Of a DNA stretch of 64,000 bases, positions 55,759 through 64,000 are shown in pieces. Position numbers and translations under genes: made by a program. Position 1 is the stretch's first letter. Each line of letters starts with the position of its first letter. The DNA is from a virus (taxonomy: Duplodnaviria; Caudoviricetes). The notes below the pieces were generated by a model. That model worked only from the letters and a program-made list of their open reading frames with translations, ran no database searches and was not told the DNA's origin. The stretch lies in IMG/VR virus record IMGVR_UViG_3300014204_013734, positions 288,001 through 352,000 of that record. One strand, written 5' to 3'.

Positions 55759-56703
55759 GTGAACTTCAATATCCAAGAACATACGATCTTCCGGTGTCTG
55801 TCCGGCAGTCACGCCTACGGCATGGCAACCCCTGAATCGGACGAGGATTTCAGGGGCGTGGCCATTCCGCCGAAGGAATACTTCCTCGGCTTCATGCAGC
55901 GGTTTGAACAGTCGGAATCGAAGCCCAGTCCGGGGCATGATGTTCCCGACGAAGTCATCTATGACATCCGAAAGTTTGTCTCCCTGGCGGCGGACAACAA
56001 CCCGAACGTCATGGAACTTTTGTTCATGCCCGAGGACACCATTGTCCATTCCACTCCGTGGTGGGAACGTCTGACGGCAATCAGGGAATCCTTCCTATCC
56101 ACCAGGGTCCGGTATACCTATGGTGGATATGCCGTGGCACAACTCAAGAGGATCCGGCAGCATCGGAACTATCTGCTGAATCCTCCGAAGAAACGGCCGG
56201 AACGGTCCGACTTTGGGCTCCCCGAAAACCAAGCTTTCGTCGATTTCAAGACCAAGGTGGAAGAAGCGAACAAGGCGGGGCTGGATGCCAGGGCCCTGTT
56301 CGGGGAGGACATCCAAAAGGAAGCACGGTATAACCGTGCCATGGCCGACTTCCATTCTTGGGAAACCTGGAAAAAGAACCGCAACCCGAAACGGGCCGAA
56401 CTGGAAGCCAAGTTTGGCTATGATTCAAAGCATGCGGCTCATTTAGTACGTCTCATGCGACAGGGTTGTGAAATCCTGGAAACCGGTAAGGTGTTTGTCC
56501 GGCGCCCTGATGCCGAAGAACTCCTGGCCATCCGTCGTGACGGCATCTGGTCTTATGACCAGTTGGTTGCCTACGCGGAAGAAATGGAAGCCCGTCTTTC
56601 CAAGATTTACGACGAAAAACTGTCCCCGCTTCCTGCGAATCCTGACCGAAAACGGATTGACGACACCGTCGTCGGAATCGTGTCGGATTTCCTGGGCTTG
56701 TAA
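55759..56703 (+). CDS. Pol-beta superfamily nucleotidyltransferase (YcgL/RlaP-like)
   Basis: GSHAYG...SDEDFRGV, NPNVME and GYDSKHAAHLVRL motifs. Confidence 0.88.
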   Translation: MNFNIQEHTIFRCLSGSHAYGMATPESDEDFRGVAIPPKEYFLGFMQRFEQSESKPSPGHDVPDEVIYDIRKFVSLAADNNPNVMELLFMPEDTIVHSTPWWERLTAIRESFLSTRVRYTYGGYAVAQLKRIRQHRNYLLNPPKKRPERSDFGLPENQAFVDFKTKVEEANKAGLDARALFGEDIQKEARYNRAMADFHSWETWKKNRNPKRAELEAKFGYDSKHAAHLVRLMRQGCEILETGKVFVRRPDAEELLAIRRDGIWSYDQLVAYAEEMEARLSKIYDEKLSPLPANPDRKRIDDTVVGIVSDFLGL

Positions 56704-57833: not shown

Positions 57834-58691
57834 ATGGCTATGCCCGCGACCGTCAAGTTGTTGGTGATTGATGATGACGCCGAAGACCGCCGCTTGGTCC
57901 ACGACTGGCTAGACGATGCGGATCGGGTCAACTTCAGCGTAGAGGAAGCGTCTACGGCGGAAGAGGGCCTGGAAAAGATGGAAAAAGGCCGGTATGACGT
58001 GGTCCTCCTGGACTATCGTATGCCGGAAAAGGACGGGTTCTGGGTCCTGGAAAGGATGCGTGCCCTTCGTTTGCAAGTCCCTGTTGTCATTGTCACCAGT
58101 CACGGGGACCGTAATGTCCAGACGCAAGCGTTTGAACTTGGCGTTGCGGACTACCTGGAAAAGGGTGCTTTCACTCCTGAACTCCTTGAACGCACTTGTC
58201 TCTATGCCATTGGCCTGAATGAACGGAAAATTTCCGAAACTTCCGGCCCCGGCGTCGGGGTTCTCATGGAACAGTTGGTATCCTTGACCCGTGATTCTGT
58301 CAAGGCCCAGTCTGATACGGCCCAGGAAATCCGGGAAATGCGCCGGGAACTGGCGTCAGGATTTGCATCGGTCAAGGAACAAGCGTCTGAACACGATAAA
58401 AACTGCCAGGACAGGAATACGGCGGTCGTCGGAAAAATAGAAGAACGGGATGCTCCGAAGGGCAAATGGCTTCTGGATTGGATTGCGGTTCACCCGCTTG
58501 CAACCCTGATTCTTGCCCTTATCCTTCTGGCTTCTATTCTCGCACTTGGAGTATTGATTCCCTTGTGGGCGGAACACGTCACGGCGGACCAACTCAAAGT
58601 GTTGAAAGGTTGTGGGATGTTGCTCTTTTTTCCCGTAATGGGATGGGAAGTACACAATGAATCTGACGGAAACGGATCGCAAGGAACTTGA
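57834..58691 (+). CDS. Receiver-domain protein fused to a coiled coil and C-terminal TM segments
   Basis: IDDD, LLDYRMP, VTS and YLEK receiver motifs; hydrophobic LATLILALILLASILALGVLIPLW. Confidence 0.85.
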   Translation: MAMPATVKLLVIDDDAEDRRLVHDWLDDADRVNFSVEEASTAEEGLEKMEKGRYDVVLLDYRMPEKDGFWVLERMRALRLQVPVVIVTSHGDRNVQTQAFELGVADYLEKGAFTPELLERTCLYAIGLNERKISETSGPGVGVLMEQLVSLTRDSVKAQSDTAQEIREMRRELASGFASVKEQASEHDKNCQDRNTAVVGKIEERDAPKGKWLLDWIAVHPLATLILALILLASILALGVLIPLWAEHVTADQLKVLKGCGMLLFFPVMGWEVHNESDGNGSQGT

Positions 58692-60330
58692 ACTTCACAA
58701 GGCGCTTATTGAATTGGGTGGACGCCTTATCAGGAACACGATATCCTTGGAAGAAATGGCATGGTTGGTATTAACCCCGGTCATGCGGTTGACGGGAACT
58801 ACCGTCGGATTTGTGTCCTACATCGACCCGGAAACCAAGGAAAATGTAGGATTCCTGAACGCCCCTGGAATTGCAGCTTGCGTAGAACAGAACCAAGGCA
58901 GAATGGTCTTTCGGTTTCCAACCGGCAAGGACGACCCCTTGTGGGGTTTTAGTCAACCGGATACCCGTACAGGTTTTTTCACAAACAAACCCGTCAAGCA
59001 CCAGATATCTAAAAACATCCCTTCCGTCGTTCGTTTTCCCATTGACAATTTCCTTTCCGTTCCTGTCGTAGCCGGTAGCAACCTGTTAGGCCACGTTGCC
59101 TTGGCTAATAAAAAAGGCGGCTTTTCAAACGAAGACATCCGAATCGTCAACCTGTTAGGGGAACTTTACGGTTTGGCTTTAGACCGCAAATTCTACGAAC
59201 AGGCCTTATTGGATGCCGAACACAAGGCAACGGAAAAGCTGAATCATAGGTTCAGGGCATTCATGGAAGCGACTCCCGACCGGTTGCACATCATCTCTTC
59301 AGACGGGGTTTTCCTTGAATCCCACCGGGGAGCCCTTCCCTTCGTGGAGAGTGATCCCTCTAAATATATTGGCAAGACCCTGCATGATTTGTTTCCTGCT
59401 GATGCCGACAAGATGCTGGACAAAGTCCGGGAAGCATTGGCCATGGACGGGACACCGATCATTTGGGAATACACAATATCCCAACTGCCTGATCATGTTT
59501 TTGAAGGCCATCTCATCAAATGTGGTCCTGATGAAGTAATGACCGTCATCAGAGAAGTCACCCAAGCGAAACAGTTGCAGTCCGATCTTGAACGCAAAGT
59601 CGAAGAACGGACTTTGGAACTCAGCCTATCCAATCAAGCGTTGCAGTCCTTCGCCTATGCAGCGTCACACGACCTTCGGGAACCGTTGAACAAGATACGG
59701 GCATATGGGGAACGGTTTGAACGTACACACCCCAACCTAGATGAAAAAGGCAAGGAATACATCGGTGTCATGGTCACGGCGGCCGAACGCCTGGCCCAGT
59801 TGGTAGAGGATCTATTGGTATATTCCAAGGCGGGCGGGAAAGATGAAGCATCCCCGGTTAAAATCCCCCTAAACAGGCTTATTGAAGAAACCTTGGGGGA
59901 TCTTGACGAATCCGTCAAGAATTCCGGCGCCATCGTAGAAGTCGGGGATCTTCCAACGGTTGAAGGTCACGCTGGAACCTTGCGGGCCGTTTTTCAGAAC
60001 GTCTTGTCAAATGCTCTAAAATTCCATAAAGTGGGACAACCCCCGAAAGTTCTGGTGTCGGGAAGGGTAGACGGTAGTATGGCATTCGTGTCTATACAGG
60101 ACAATGGAATCGGTTTTGATCCGGCATACAAGGAAAAAATCTTCGCTATTTTTAACAGGCTTCACACCCGGTTTGAATATCCGGGTACAGGAATAGGGTT
60201 GGCCCTTTGTCGAAGGCTGTTGGCCCAATGCGGCGGAACCGTAACGGCGGACGCCAGACCCAATGAAGGAGCTGTTTTCACGATCCAAATCCCGCTCAAA
60301 TTCTCCTCTGCATTTCCAAAAGGAACCTGA
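58657..60330 (+). CDS. Sensor histidine kinase (GAF-PAS-HisKA-HATPase_c)
   Basis: AASHDLREPL H-box; NALKF, DNGIG and GTGIGL; FLSVP...LANK GAF end. Confidence 0.92.
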   Translation: MNLTETDRKELELHKALIELGGRLIRNTISLEEMAWLVLTPVMRLTGTTVGFVSYIDPETKENVGFLNAPGIAACVEQNQGRMVFRFPTGKDDPLWGFSQPDTRTGFFTNKPVKHQISKNIPSVVRFPIDNFLSVPVVAGSNLLGHVALANKKGGFSNEDIRIVNLLGELYGLALDRKFYEQALLDAEHKATEKLNHRFRAFMEATPDRLHIISSDGVFLESHRGALPFVESDPSKYIGKTLHDLFPADADKMLDKVREALAMDGTPIIWEYTISQLPDHVFEGHLIKCGPDEVMTVIREVTQAKQLQSDLERKVEERTLELSLSNQALQSFAYAASHDLREPLNKIRAYGERFERTHPNLDEKGKEYIGVMVTAAERLAQLVEDLLVYSKAGGKDEASPVKIPLNRLIEETLGDLDESVKNSGAIVEVGDLPTVEGHAGTLRAVFQNVLSNALKFHKVGQPPKVLVSGRVDGSMAFVSIQDNGIGFDPAYKEKIFAIFNRLHTRFEYPGTGIGLALCRRLLAQCGGTVTADARPNEGAVFTIQIPLKFSSAFPKGT

Positions 60331-60335
60331 AACCC

Positions 60336-60779
60336 ATGCCTGAAACCGCCCCTTTAGTCATTTTCGCTGAAGACGACCTTGAAGATTGGGACCTCATCAA
60401 GGAAGTTCTGGAAGAATGTGAAGAGTGCCGATCCGGCGCCCTCAAATATGAACACGTGGTTGATGGGGTCGCCCTGATGGAACGGTTGACCAATCCCGTA
60501 CCTCAAAAACCAGACATGGTGATGCTGGACCTCAAGATGCCAAAGAAAGATGGTGCGGAATCCTTGGAAGAAATCCGGGCAAATCCGGAACTCAGACACA
60601 TTCCGGTCATTATTCTGACCACTTCCCGTTTGGAAGCCGACATCTTTGAAGCTTATCACCGCGGGGCAAATTCCTATGTTGTAAAACCAGTAACGCACGA
60701 CACCATTAAACAAGCACTCCACGATATTCAGTACTATTGGACTAAAGTAGCCGTTAAGCCATCCAAAAACCATGCCTGA
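60336..60779 (+). CDS. Single-domain response regulator (Rcp1-like)
   Basis: AEDD, LDLKMP, LTTS and GANSYVVKP motifs. Confidence 0.92.
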   Translation: MPETAPLVIFAEDDLEDWDLIKEVLEECEECRSGALKYEHVVDGVALMERLTNPVPQKPDMVMLDLKMPKKDGAESLEEIRANPELRHIPVIILTTSRLEADIFEAYHRGANSYVVKPVTHDTIKQALHDIQYYWTKVAVKPSKNHA

Positions 60780-61309: not shown

Positions 61310-61966
61310 ATGTTAACAAGGGATCAAGTTAAGGAACGTATCCATTACCAGAAGGAATCCCTCACCAAATGTCGCAAAGAAATTCCAATCCTTTGCAAGG
61401 AAGCCGCTACAGAAAAAAACGTTTTTAAAAGTAGGGAGTTGGAACACGAAGCAGCACTTAAACAAGGCGGAAAAGGGGTTGTAGGACAAGAACATCGGGA
61501 ATTTCTTCTTGTTTACGCGTGGATGAGAAACCGTCGTTATCGAACTGTGGAACGACGGACGGCAATTGACAACATAGCTGACCGTTTTCTGGCAGAACGT
61601 TCCTTGGAAAAACTTGTACAGAGAGTTGTGCGACACCTATCTGTCGATCGCGAAGTTATCTGGTTTTGGATGACTTTTGATTTCCCTCCAAAGGATATTC
61701 TGGAAGGAAAGGCTTCGTTCATGGTGGCGGAAATCGCGAAGAAAAAGATGGAGGAAGCGGAAAAAGACGTCCAAGAAGCTGAAAAACATTTGGCTAGAGC
61801 CGAAGCACACTTTGTTGCGGAAAAAGCCAGATTGGAAGCCAGTATCGAATGGGCTCAGGAAAACCTGAAAAAAGCAACCGCTGAAGCAACGTACCGCATC
61901 AAGGCTTTCGCTGAAATCAAAGCTGCCGTCGGGAATACAATTCAATCGGGTGTGGTGAAAGGGTAA
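61310..61966 (+). CDS. Hypothetical helical protein, paralogue 1
   Basis: HREFLLVYAWMRNRRYRTVERRT plus coiled coil. Confidence 0.7.
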   Translation: MLTRDQVKERIHYQKESLTKCRKEIPILCKEAATEKNVFKSRELEHEAALKQGGKGVVGQEHREFLLVYAWMRNRRYRTVERRTAIDNIADRFLAERSLEKLVQRVVRHLSVDREVIWFWMTFDFPPKDILEGKASFMVAEIAKKKMEEAEKDVQEAEKHLARAEAHFVAEKARLEASIEWAQENLKKATAEATYRIKAFAEIKAAVGNTIQSGVVKG

Positions 61967-61973
61967 TTTCAGT

Positions 61974-62633
61974 ATGAAACCGGAAGAATTGAAGAAAGAC
62001 ATTAAGTCCTTAACCGTGTCCCTCATTGAATACCGCAAGAACATCAGGAAATTGATCCTTGAGGCCCGGCAGGAGGAAAAGACCGACGCTGATCGGAATA
62101 TCTTACGCGAACGGGCACAAAAGGCTAAGACCAATAAGGATTACTATGGTAGGAAACAGCGTCATCTTCTTCTGGCCTGTGCCTGGTTGCGTAATTACCG
62201 CTACAGGACCGTAGAAGGACGAACGCTGGCCGACAAGGTAAAGGATCCCTGGGAAGCCCGGATGATACGAGAAAACCTTGCGGAAGCCGTTTCTAATCTA
62301 CTCCCTGTTGGAAGACAGGAAGTGCTTACCTGGATGACGGTAGACCTTGAACCTCGGGAAGTTGAACGGAAGCTGTACCTTGAAGCTTTTGAGAAAGCTG
62401 AAAAAGAAGTAGCGGAAACTTCCGGAGAAACAGAATTCGCCCAGTGGTTTTTATGCGAAGTGACTACCTTTGTCAAACAATTGGAAAACAAAGGCGAAGA
62501 ATCTTTCGTTCTGAATTTGGCCAGAAAACAGAAGGAAAAAGCGGCTAAGACATTAGAAAAAACGAAGGCCCTTCTGGCGGGTAAGCAGAGGGCAAGGGAC
62601 CGTGCAAAAGAAGTTGTTTTCCGGGTAGATTAG
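61974..62633 (+). CDS. Hypothetical helical protein, paralogue 2
   Basis: QRHLLLACAWLRNYRYRTVEGRT plus coiled coil. Confidence 0.7.
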   Translation: MKPEELKKDIKSLTVSLIEYRKNIRKLILEARQEEKTDADRNILRERAQKAKTNKDYYGRKQRHLLLACAWLRNYRYRTVEGRTLADKVKDPWEARMIRENLAEAVSNLLPVGRQEVLTWMTVDLEPREVERKLYLEAFEKAEKEVAETSGETEFAQWFLCEVTTFVKQLENKGEESFVLNLARKQKEKAAKTLEKTKALLAGKQRARDRAKEVVFRVD

Positions 62634-62648
62634 TTTGGAAGTTGTTCA

Positions 62649-62676
62649 TTGACAATTGTAGTACCCAAGTTAGTTT
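62649..62676 (+). promoter_or_regulatory. Sigma70-like promoter candidate
   Basis: TTGACA-N16-TAGTTT; predicted start coincides with the first stem of the folded leader. Confidence 0.5.
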
Positions 62677-62679
62677 TAC

Positions 62680-62968
62680 GTTCCCAAAGAAATTCCAATC
62701 TGTAGGGAAAAACGTTTGTTGAAGAATCTTAAAGGAAATCCTTTAGATTCGCGTTTTTTCCATAAAACATCAAAATGATCGTACAGATTCAGGAATTGGG
62801 AACTCTAAGGTTCCCTTCCCACAAAAGAAGTAGGTTCGCGTTCCTAATGATTTCCATAGGTTAGGTAAGATTTTGGGTAAAAACCGTTACTTAAAAACCA
62901 AAGGGTTTTTAGGTTCACGTTTTCATCCCAAAAATCTGAATAATAACATAGGTTTGGAATGGGACCCT
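62680..62968 (+). ncRNA. Candidate structured RNA (two nested stem domains) preceding the mini-array
   Basis: 62680-62704 pairs with 62782-62803; inner stems 62706-62714/62752-62761 and 62724-62750; 62808-62819/62956-62968 encloses 62868-62877/62927-62937 and 62892-62911. Confidence 0.55.
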
Positions 62969-63158
62969 CTTTAAAGGGGTCCGAACCCCCTTTACACGTT
63001 GAAAGTTCCCCCACCGCCACCTGCCGGACCTTGCCATGCTTTAAAAGGGGATCAGGTCCTCTTTTACACGTTGAAAGAAAACACGTTGAACAATGGGCAT
63101 TCCAGCCTCAGCTTCGGTCCTTTCAAGGGGGATACAATCCCCCTTCACACGTTGAATT
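62969..63158 (+). CRISPR. Cas-less CRISPR-like mini-array: 3 divergent hairpin repeats (37-39 nt), 2 spacers
   Basis: Repeats at 62969-63005, 63039-63077 and 63120-63158 share CTTT..AAGGGG-loop-CCYCTT..ACACGTTGAA; spacer 2 matches 63533-63559 at 24/27. Confidence 0.75.
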
Positions 63159-63190
63159 AAAAGCAACCCATAATTCCAATTGTCCCAAAG

Positions 63191-63225
63191 AAGTCCCCTG
63201 GTTCAAAACCACGGGGCTTTTTTTT
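63191..63225 (+). terminator. Intrinsic terminator after the mini-array
   Basis: CCCCTGGTT-CAA-AACCACGGGG stem followed by T8. Confidence 0.75.
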
Positions 63226-63286
63226 GGCTATGGTCTTTACCAAAGTGGAGGGGCATCCCTACCTCCCCAACTTAAGGAGTCTTAAA

Positions 63287-63577
63287 ATGCCTATGCAGGA
63301 CCGACAAGTAACAATCCTGGACGTAATTGCTGATACCGATGGGGCAGCTTTCCTCGTAGGAAGGAAAGGGAATTCCCATCTATTTGTCATTACGATCACC
63401 GGGGCGGCTACCGTCAAGATACAAGGCCGACAAAAAAGCGGTGCTTGGAAGGATTTGACTTCTACGGCAGCGAATGCCGAATTGAACGTTGATGATTACG
63501 GTTGGTGGGAATTTAGGGCCGTTTCATCGGCGATGGGAATTCCTGCCACAGCTTCGGTCGTTTGGAGTTGGACCTAA
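63287..63577 (+). CDS. Small beta-rich probable virion protein; contains the spacer-2 match
   Basis: AAGGAG RBS; ATVKIQG...WKDL pattern. Confidence 0.65.
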   Translation: MPMQDRQVTILDVIADTDGAAFLVGRKGNSHLFVITITGAATVKIQGRQKSGAWKDLTSTAANAELNVDDYGWWEFRAVSSAMGIPATASVVWSWT

Positions 63578-63593: not shown

Positions 63594-64000
63594 ATGACTG
63601 AAATCAAATATCCCCCAAATGAATCGACCCCGACTGCCCACCATACAACCCACGAACCTGGGGGTTTAGACGAAGTGTTTGGCATCCCTGCCGCACCCCA
63701 TGCGGCAAGCCACCTAACAGGGGCGGACCTGCTTCCCGACGCTACTGGAGTAGCCCGAGGGCTCATGTCGGCGGCATTTGCCGGCAAGGTCAATGCCCAG
63801 TTTTTCATTGACCCGAATTCCATCCACGTCGACAAAAACCGAACTGATGTTTATACCGAAGATGGAAGCCCAACATTCCCTTACAAGACCATTCAGGCAG
63901 GTGTAACCCACGCAGAAACGACGGCCACTTCTTCTAATCCTGTTATGGTGATGGTTGAACCAGGTAATTATGACGAAAACGTGGTCATCCACAAAGACGG
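63594..64000 (+). CDS. Probable tail fibre/spike protein, 3'-partial
   Basis: Hand translation gives HAASH, GLMSA and DGSPTFPYKTIQAGV...VEPGNYDENV (start of a pectin-lyase-like beta-helix). Confidence 0.6.
   Translation, partial: MTEIKYPPNESTPTAHHTTHEPGGLDEVFGIPAAPHAASHLTGADLLPDATGVARGLMSAAFAGKVNAQFFIDPNSIHVDKNRTDVYTEDGSPTFPYKTIQAGVTHAETTATSSNPVMVMVEPGNYDENVVIHKD

Follow-up and report, generated by a model that had tools for sequence, protein, structure and literature searches.

The window analysed here is a stretch of 64,000 nucleotides (nt) of a Caudoviricetes phage, positions 288,001 to 352,000 of the IMG/VR record IMGVR_UViG_3300014204_013734, and the coordinates below refer to the window unless stated otherwise. 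Close to its right end, at 62969-63158 on the + strand, three hairpin repeats of 37-39 nt each are separated by two spacers. The locus behaves as a small CRISPR array and not as a chance repeat, which is supported by its anatomy, by the exchange of spacers between strains and by the near-identity of two spacers to adjacent phage genes. The favoured reading, with a probability of about one half, is that of a virus-borne mini-CRISPR array with an orphan class-1-like repeat, which would serve in the conflict between closely related phages.

The array occupies a 654-nt gap between a gene of 219 amino acids (aa) at 61974-62633 (+) and a 96-aa gene at 63287-63577 (+). The initial annotation had described 37-39-nt repeats with spacers of 33 and 42 nt, and these lengths were confirmed. 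The repeats recur at periods of 72 and 81 nt, and such direct repeats within the 23-50-nt range, combined with unique spacers of similar length, are a general property of CRISPR arrays. Repeat 1 (R1, 62969-63005, +) consists of a 3-nt 5′ tail, an 8-base-pair (bp) stem and the 11-nt 3′ tail CACGTTGAAAG, and it is followed by the 33-nt spacer 1 (63006-63038, +), for which no target was found. Repeat 2 (R2, 63039-63077, +) has an 11-nt tail and an 11-bp stem including two G.U pairs, which form only in the + strand RNA and are the cause of the difference in its folding energy (-11.1 kcal/mol on the + strand versus -6.2 on the - strand). Spacer 2 (63078-63119, +; 42 nt) opens, as the initial annotation had noticed, with a duplicated repeat end: this handle copy (63078-63090, +) is formed by AAA and a second ACACGTTGAA (63081-63090), and the remaining 29 nt (63091-63119, +) are the core of the spacer. 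The terminal repeat (R3, 63120-63158, +) is degenerate at its 3′ end, where GAATT replaces GAAAG, and a sister strain has the same terminal form.

The 3′ ACACGTTGAA is common to all three repeats and occurs four times in the window, against 0.17 expected; three additional copies elsewhere in the 381-kb record have no adjoining hairpin. Folding gives a hairpin stem of 8-11 bp in each repeat, and exactly 11 unpaired nt, CACGUUGAAA(G/C), lie 3′ of the stem in five of the seven repeats of the two strains. The pairwise identity among the three repeats of the window is 67-74%, below that of typical arrays. It had been proposed that structure rather than sequence is conserved, and this holds in part. 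The hairpins are indeed kept through G.U wobbles, stem extension and loop changes between the repeats, but the stem AAGGGG/CCCCUU is itself largely conserved and true double compensatory changes are few. The 108-aa open reading frame (ORF) placed over the array by gene callers (62959-63285) is almost certainly spurious and is absent from the sister strain. At gathering thresholds Rfam has no match in the whole window, a relaxed cut-off of E <= 10 gave noise alone at the locus, and a scan for transfer RNA (tRNA) genes found none.

Two spacers have target-like content. The core of spacer 2 is a near-copy of 63531-63559 (+), a site at the 3′ end of the 96-aa gene and 440 nt downstream of the spacer, with 25 of 29 positions identical on the same strand; shuffled sequences reached 21 at most, and the expected number of chance matches in the genome is 5e-6. 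With the codon phase taken from the ORF start at 63287, three of the four mismatches are synonymous third-codon changes (63532, 63538 and 63544), and the fourth, at 63548, is a Thr/Ser change. In the sister strain (L068), the last spacer matches a tail-fibre-like gene about 1.2 kb downstream at 24 of 27 positions (3.5e-6 chance matches expected), and the matching site corresponds to window coordinate 64287, just beyond the window. Both near-matches have the same kind of boundaries, the similarity setting in directly behind the last copy of the handle and running precisely up to the following repeat. When the mismatches of both are pooled, six of seven fall at third-codon positions (p = 0.007), all six being synonymous and the seventh being the Thr/Ser change. 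Because the mismatches are mostly synonymous, the spacers have the appearance of allelic versions of the genes, derived from a close relative or the ancestor, and not of a decaying local duplicate. As far as the sequence can tell, such a pattern fits allelic divergence or escape rather than the decay of a non-coding copy. The carrier's own near-target loci thus differ from the spacers at 3-4 mostly synonymous positions, and the match of spacers to mobile-element DNA, here to adjacent phage genes, is a further general property of CRISPR arrays.

Other explanations of the spacer similarity were considered. A template and variable-repeat pair of a diversity-generating retroelement was rejected, as the mismatches are not adenine-specific, the match extends over just 29 nt and no reverse transcriptase gene was noticed among the annotated neighbours. 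An antisense small RNA acting on neighbouring mRNAs was ruled out, since spacers and mRNAs agree in sense; for the same reason any targeting must be of DNA. A 23/35 spacer match in another contig (L061) was dismissed because the gene is non-orthologous.

The second line of evidence is provided by the comparison of strains. Four assemblies of this phage, obtained independently from landfill and groundwater (L064-L067), do not differ at the locus. The sister strain has four repeats and three different spacers, with leader and trailer almost unchanged; its leader differs from that of the window by three indels and a loop inversion and is otherwise near-identical. Such variation of spacers between strains with a conserved leader and trailer is also generally seen in CRISPR arrays. 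The allele of the sister strain was seen again in sequencing run X3, and the contigs of the DNA runs hold the same two array alleles and nothing further. In two repeats of the sister strain the 11-nt tail is present twice in exact tandem, and this duplication is the counterpart of the AAA and ACACGTTGAA after R2. The initial description of the locus as a guide-RNA-like unit is therefore supported in part, by spacer turnover with conserved flanks and by the two near-matches to adjacent genes; no matching repeat family was found in the collections scanned.

In distant relatives (81% and 73% protein identity) both flanking genes are present, with a gap of just 100-114 nt, which consists of an intrinsic terminator and a ribosome-binding site; the leader and the array are absent. 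The relatives' orthologue of the 219-aa gene is a 220-aa gene with a terminator directly after it, and the T8 terminator of the window (63193-63227, +) is positionally equivalent to it. As the relatives have the terminator alone at this site, the leader and array represent an insertion upstream of the ancestral terminator. By this comparison, a cassette of about 500-560 nt has come to separate the stop codon of the 219-aa gene from the gene's own terminator. This position implies that transcription is predicted on the + strand, whether or not the array has its own weak promoter.

The array thus sits in the 3′ untranslated region (UTR) of the 219-aa gene, and it is preceded by an AT-rich, strongly folding leader-like region (62634-62968, +). 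The fold of this leader has a predicted energy of -93.9 kcal/mol, with a z-score of -4.6 on the + strand versus -3.2 on the - strand. It contains four weaker units TAGNTTCRCGTT, at about 62671, 62742, 62831 and 62908, two of which are preceded by an A/U-rich hairpin, as well as an imperfect palindrome of 62 nt (62871-62932). In the sister strain the loop of this palindrome is changed from CAAAGG to CCTTTG, which represents a flip of the hairpin tip. A TTGACA promoter had been suggested upstream. The hexamer is present at 62649-62654, but the best -10 element is TAGTTT, with three of six consensus positions, and a consensus promoter scan reports none at TTGACA-N16-TAGTTT. This putative weak promoter (62649-62676, +), read by eye, is a possible promoter of the array, the alternative being read-through from the 219-aa gene. 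The terminator named in the initial annotation is real, with an interrupted stem, T8, an energy of -20.1 kcal/mol and a z-score of -3.3, but it belongs ancestrally to the upstream gene. A 15-nt motif, TCCCAAAGAA(A/G)T(T/C)CC, occurs at 62682-62696 and 63183-63197, spaced 501 nt apart. One copy lies near the left edge of the cassette and the other just before the ancestral terminator, and a third copy (18/19) is found at 61372-61390 within the preceding 218-aa gene. The copies may be junction microhomology left by the insertion.

In the favoured reading, the steps of expression, processing, effector binding and cleavage would proceed as follows. The array would be transcribed from the + strand, together with the upstream operon or from its own weak promoter, and an endoribonuclease specific for the repeats, belonging to a Cas system with its genes elsewhere, would cut at the hairpins. 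The Cas system reading the array would most likely be that of the host and not the phage's own type I-E. The product would be a CRISPR RNA (crRNA) with an 11-nt (or 8-nt) 5′ handle, the spacer and a 3′ hairpin. By pairing with DNA, it would target alleles of the 96-aa and tail-fibre-like genes in closely related co-infecting phages, and the carrier's copies would escape through their synonymous-site differences. The predicted function is the superinfection exclusion of near relatives, in which a weapon (the array) is linked to a shield (the recoded allele). Such linkage would be favoured because a recombinant with the array but without the resistant allele would be cut. In a separate and more novel reading, the orphan repeat could serve an effector of an undescribed kind, possibly among the many unannotated proteins of the phage.

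The locus had been called Cas-less, and no cas gene of the eight families searched is indeed present in the window, but the full phage genome has cas3 and a type I-E Cascade about 36 kb away from the mini-array. The IMG/VR record is a trimmed copy of that genome, a single sequence of 381,280 bp labelled as a provirus and estimated to be 72% complete. By exact-protein look-ups, the same phage was found on an ENA contig of 444,386 bp, which is a circular permutation of the record with an additional 63 kb. The cas operon lies in the added part, with cas3, cse1, cse2, cas7, cas5 and cas6e at L117:5898-13056 (ENA contig k141_2421636), and is directly followed by an array of about 32 repeats (L117:13122-15100), which diverge in loop and handle. 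Operon and array together (L117:5898-15100) are located about 6-16 kb past the end of the 381-kb record. Neither cas1 nor cas2 was present among the precomputed Pfam hits of the added 63 kb, and on its gene content the operon is read as a complete type I-E interference module without cas1 and cas2. The cas content of the 381-kb record was assessed by six-frame searches with eight families (two Cas6 families, Cas6e, Cas5, Cas7e, RAMPs, Cas1 and the TnpB/Cas12f zinc ribbon), which gave no real match, and that of the remaining 63 kb by the precomputed Pfam hits. A weak zinc-ribbon match at record position 166,029 is really a DNA methylase interrupted by a LAGLIDADG endonuclease; this 905-aa methyltransferase, split by the homing-endonuclease domain, is encoded at record 163905-166619 (L078:6819-9533). 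Similarly, a weak PADLOC match of the 219-aa neighbour to Cas7e (E-value 0.005) was judged to be noise.

The rest of the genome, which the initial annotation had proposed to scan for cas genes and repeats, contains the type I-E operon, its array of about 32 repeats and an I-E-like mini-array. The repeats of the phage's type I-E system are 29 nt long, with a CCCCAC/GTGGGG stem and an 8-nt handle of the AUGAUCCG type. In the window repeats the stem is GGGG/CCCC, with the polarity reversed, and the tail differs as well; they are not type I-E repeats. The second mini-array, at record 197,041-197,258, is I-E-like and has five repeats with truncated spacers of 12-27 nt. Its last spacer matches at 25 of 27 positions a site 840 nt downstream (record 198040, +), and another spacer matches at 20 of 23 positions a site about 800 nt upstream (record 196356, -). 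Of the two mismatches in the former, read by eye, one falls at the third position of a codon and the other exchanges Val and Ile; over the near-matches of both mini-arrays together, seven of nine differences are synonymous. In contrast, the about 30 spacers of the main I-E array show chance-level similarity alone to the phage, so that near-neighbour self-matches characterise the two cas-distal mini-arrays. A solitary I-E-like repeat, GTTCCCCAC...GTGGGG, occurs at about record 56240-56270, directly upstream of a tRNA gene, and could act as a decoy or processing signal for the phage Cas6e. In the added 63 kb, a gene for a 554-aa PARP-domain protein stands right after the I-E array (L117:15193-16857). 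The same part holds about 35 tandem paralogues of 180-220 aa with no Pfam hits (L120:8020-20261 and L121:1103-20591), and in an all-against-all blastp of L120, 17 of 23 ORFs were mutually similar.

Several findings weigh against the favoured reading. No cognate Cas system is known, the sole recognisable cas operon of the phage being type I-E, with repeats unrelated to those of the window. Three of the five spacers of the two strains, namely spacer 1 and the first two of the sister strain, are without a counterpart in the complete genome of the phage, in its relatives and in GenBank phages; for spacer 1 the best similarity in the phage genome is 21/33, which is the chance level, with no match at the peptide level. 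A perfect protospacer was found nowhere in the data searched, relatives included, a scan of IMG/VR with a codon-degenerate protospacer pattern gave 0 matches, and neither of the two known strains is targeted by these spacers of the other. The repeat identity of 67-74%, together with the duplication of the handle in three units, is uncommon among arrays that actively adapt and might interfere with processing. Finally, motif scans of 185,579 species genomes, the JGI metagenomes and IMG/VR found no array with this handle; the scans demanded the exact 10-13-nt handle, and a diverged relative could escape them.

The search for the repeat family, proposed in the initial annotation for CRISPR repeat databases and candidate hosts, covered genome, metagenome and viral collections and revealed no family with this hairpin and handle. 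The scan of the species genomes returned 40 loci without a hairpin repeat of the window type. In IMG/VR, a paired-handle scan gave 16 tandem repeats, all unrelated, and a scan for the consensus hairpin gave 0 matches. The only CRISPR family found to carry the CTTTACACGTTGAAAC motif (16 nt) is a 47-nt Bacteroidales repeat, which forms large arrays in metagenomes (contigs L106, L088, L111, L047 and others) with a period of 76-77 nt, up to 113 repeats and spacers of 29-30 nt. It is probably of type II-C. It was rejected as the cognate family, as 13 of the 16 shared bases were forced by the search and the hairpin and the 5′ two-thirds differ; moreover, a type II crRNA would need the part that is missing from the window repeat, and the similarity was judged a coincidence. 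The Rfam CRISPR-DR models gave no match to the repeats at E <= 10, and they likewise missed the genuine I-E array of the phage, the library being too sparse. In the full-text literature no CRISPR paper with the handle sequence was found. With respect to class, the proposed class 1 geometry of the Cas6-processed type is retained, as a hairpin is followed by a fixed tail ending in TTGAAAC/G in five of seven repeats, similarly to types I-C and I-G. Membership in type I-G and processing by a host Cas6 did not receive the same confirmation, with no matching repeat family. Type I-C crRNAs have an 11-nt 5′ handle, equal in length to the tail seen here, and are cut by Cas5d. The class 1 likeness is a resemblance in geometry, not a family membership.

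Explanations other than guide function were considered, some of which may coexist with it. The blocking of host Cascade, raised in the initial annotation, would make the locus an RNA anti-CRISPR (Racr-like) decoy, whose repeats mimic host class 1 repeats and soak up Cas6, Cas5 or Cas7 while the spacer content is irrelevant. Diverged repeats with abnormal and duplicated handles, and the absence of a cognate cas gene adjoining the array, are what such a decoy would show; the same phage scatters solitary I-E-like repeats, and Racrs in phages cover almost all CRISPR types (PMC10651486). Nevertheless, the decoy is unlikely and fits less well than guide function. The spacers were replaced between strains with the flanks kept, and two of them are boundary-to-boundary near-copies of adjacent coding sequence with synonymous differences, a target-like content superfluous for a decoy; nor did the scanned collections contain a host repeat to be mimicked. 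It is quite unlikely, too, that the transcripts are regulatory crRNA-like RNAs (CreA/CreR-like or viral 'Cracr arrays'), in which degenerate repeats steer a Cas effector to bind without cutting. Such RNAs could adjust the activity of neighbouring phage genes or, by way of spacer 1 and the remaining spacers for which no target was found, repress host cas or defence promoters. Phage arrays of 2-3 units of this kind are known for types I-C, I-E and I-F (bioRxiv 10.1101/2024.10.29.618823), and the degenerate repeats, the 2-3 spacers, the imperfect nearby matches, the spacers without a viral target and the truncated 12-27-nt spacers of the I-E-like mini-array all agree with them. The near-matches, however, lie in the 3′ end of a coding region and inside the tail-fibre-like gene and not in promoters, and their mismatches are scattered at third-codon positions, including spacer positions 2-3 from the end of the preceding handle. 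No contiguous match proximal to a protospacer-adjacent motif (PAM) with a mismatched distal part was found. In the cas-operon locus of the phage the longest exact spacer matches are 9-12 nt, and the 12-nt match (about 0.08 expected) was rejected as a promoter target, as it lies inside the cse2 coding sequence and includes the duplicated handle.

The two remaining explanations deny a present RNA-guided function. In the first, the locus would act as a non-coding RNA or 3′ UTR element with a defined structure, or at the DNA level as a replication origin, packaging site or regulator-binding site composed of hairpins and 11-nt direct repeats, the spacer similarity arising by local duplication. The tandem 11-nt unit CACGTTGAAAC, whose period is near one helical turn, the palindrome-rich leader and a Cas partner that is not known speak for this view, which is very doubtful. 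Local duplication does not account for a similarity confined exactly to the inter-repeat segments in two strains and in two different genes, and leaves the synonymous-site differences unexplained. No Rfam family matches the structure, and an essential cis site would not be expected to be absent from relatives that keep both flanking genes. Equally doubtful is the decaying, non-functional remnant of an array captured from a former host. The low repeat identity, the duplicated or shortened handles, the degenerate terminal repeat, the repeat-like units reaching into the 'leader' and the failure to find a cognate system would follow naturally from decay. On the other side, neither allele has lost the hairpins or the 11-nt tail although the sequence has changed, which is partly due to G.U pairs, the alleles differ by whole repeat-spacer units, which indicates recent turnover, and the locus is identical in the four landfill and groundwater assemblies.

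The preferred reading, a mini-array directed at close relatives, can be extended to a selfish cassette, in which the array and the recoded allele together would act as an RNA-guided 'homing' or poison-antidote element. In a mixed infection, the unrecoded allele of the rival would be cut under direction of the crRNA, at a distance of a few hundred bases from where the array is inserted, and recombinational repair from the carrier would transfer both the array and the resistant allele to the rival genome. Such an element would be a programmable analogue of the homing endonucleases of T-even phages. The extension is unlikely. If true, it would explain why mini-array targets cluster beside the arrays, which was left open in PMC6858448, as well as the absence of the cassette from relatives and the same arrangement in two unrelated mini-arrays of one phage.

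For the 219-aa product no match was found in Pfam or PHROG; it is a paralogue of the product of the preceding 218-aa gene (61310-61966), with 36% identity. The 96-aa product also has no assigned function from the Pfam and PHROG searches, though relatives were found, and it is followed by the start of the 1876-aa tail-fibre-like gene (63594-64000, +), which has a PHROG tail-protein match. In one of the four assemblies carrying the window's array (L067:2089-4901), the region corresponding to window 63594 onward is called as two genes of 773 and 1078 aa, and the region downstream of the array is strain-variable. Further upstream, at 57834-60779, the genes of a two-component set specify a 285-aa response regulator, a 557-aa GAF-PAS histidine kinase and another receiver protein of 147 aa, and this set is kept in relatives (L057-L059).

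Most known mini-arrays carried by viruses come from archaeal viruses and a small number of prophages. Here, a huge bacteriophage with its own type I-E system carries two further cas-distal mini-arrays, both with near-neighbour spacer matches, and the repeat type of one of them has no counterpart in about 185,000 species genomes. The locus is moderately to highly interesting because of the orphan repeat, the coexisting type I-E system and the recurring weapon-beside-shield arrangement. It offers a natural test case for such linkage (or homing) between close phages and for the Cas machinery that would read an orphan repeat. It also illustrates that arrays of 2-3 spacers with diverged repeats escape standard array finders and that provirus trimming of virus records can strip the phage's own cas operon.

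The closest parallel is found in the portogloboviruses SPV1 and SPV2. Medvedeva et al. (2019, PMC6858448) described mini-arrays of these archaeal viruses with a leader, no cas genes and spacer turnover at a fixed position; their targets lie near the array in related viruses, the carrier's own copy is point-mutated, and the proximity of targets to arrays was left unexplained. That article also cites prophage mini-arrays from an earlier study. The window locus has the same features of a viral intergenic array with 1-3 spacers, a leader and no adjacent cas gene (by the eight-family search of the 381-kb record), as it combines 2-3 spacers, a constant site, strain-different spacers, matches near the array and a carrier copy with point mutations. 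It differs in that the SPV repeats are those of the host type I-A and have perfect targets in the sister virus, neither of which was found here, in that its repeats are diverged with a duplicated handle, and in that the carrier is a bacteriophage of about 444 kb with an unrelated type I-E system of its own. The Racrs of Camara-Wilpert et al. (2023, PMC10651486) are likewise repeat-like hairpins of phages at a distance from cas genes, with the potential to compete for subunits of Cas complexes, but they are mostly single repeats without meaningful spacers, whereas here 3-4 repeats enclose strain-variable spacers, two of them target-like. The Cracr arrays of Liu et al. (bioRxiv 10.1101/2024.10.29.618823) share the phage location, 2-3 spacers, degenerate repeats and Cas proteins encoded elsewhere. 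In those arrays the PAM-proximal part of the spacer (at least 9 bases) matches a cas or creT promoter of the host, unlike the window-type matches, which span the full spacer inside genes of the phage structural region with scattered synonymous mismatches. Among cellular systems, those class 1 repeats (types I-C, I-G, I-D, I-B and III) whose tail terminates in ATTGAAAC/G are similar in their length of 36-39 nt, the G:C-rich hairpin, the 11-nt tail with its last 7 nt TTGAAAC/G and the degenerate terminal repeat; the difference is that no sequence relative of the repeat was found and that the 5′ part of the tail is CACG instead of the usual GGA. With the CRISPR-Cas systems of huge phages, surveyed for landfill megaphages (PMC12607003), the carrier shares the landfill and groundwater setting, a cas operon without cas1 and cas2, and arrays. 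The window array is distinguished from these as a second, cas-distal array of another repeat type, whose two spacers place it below the reporting limit of standard array finders.

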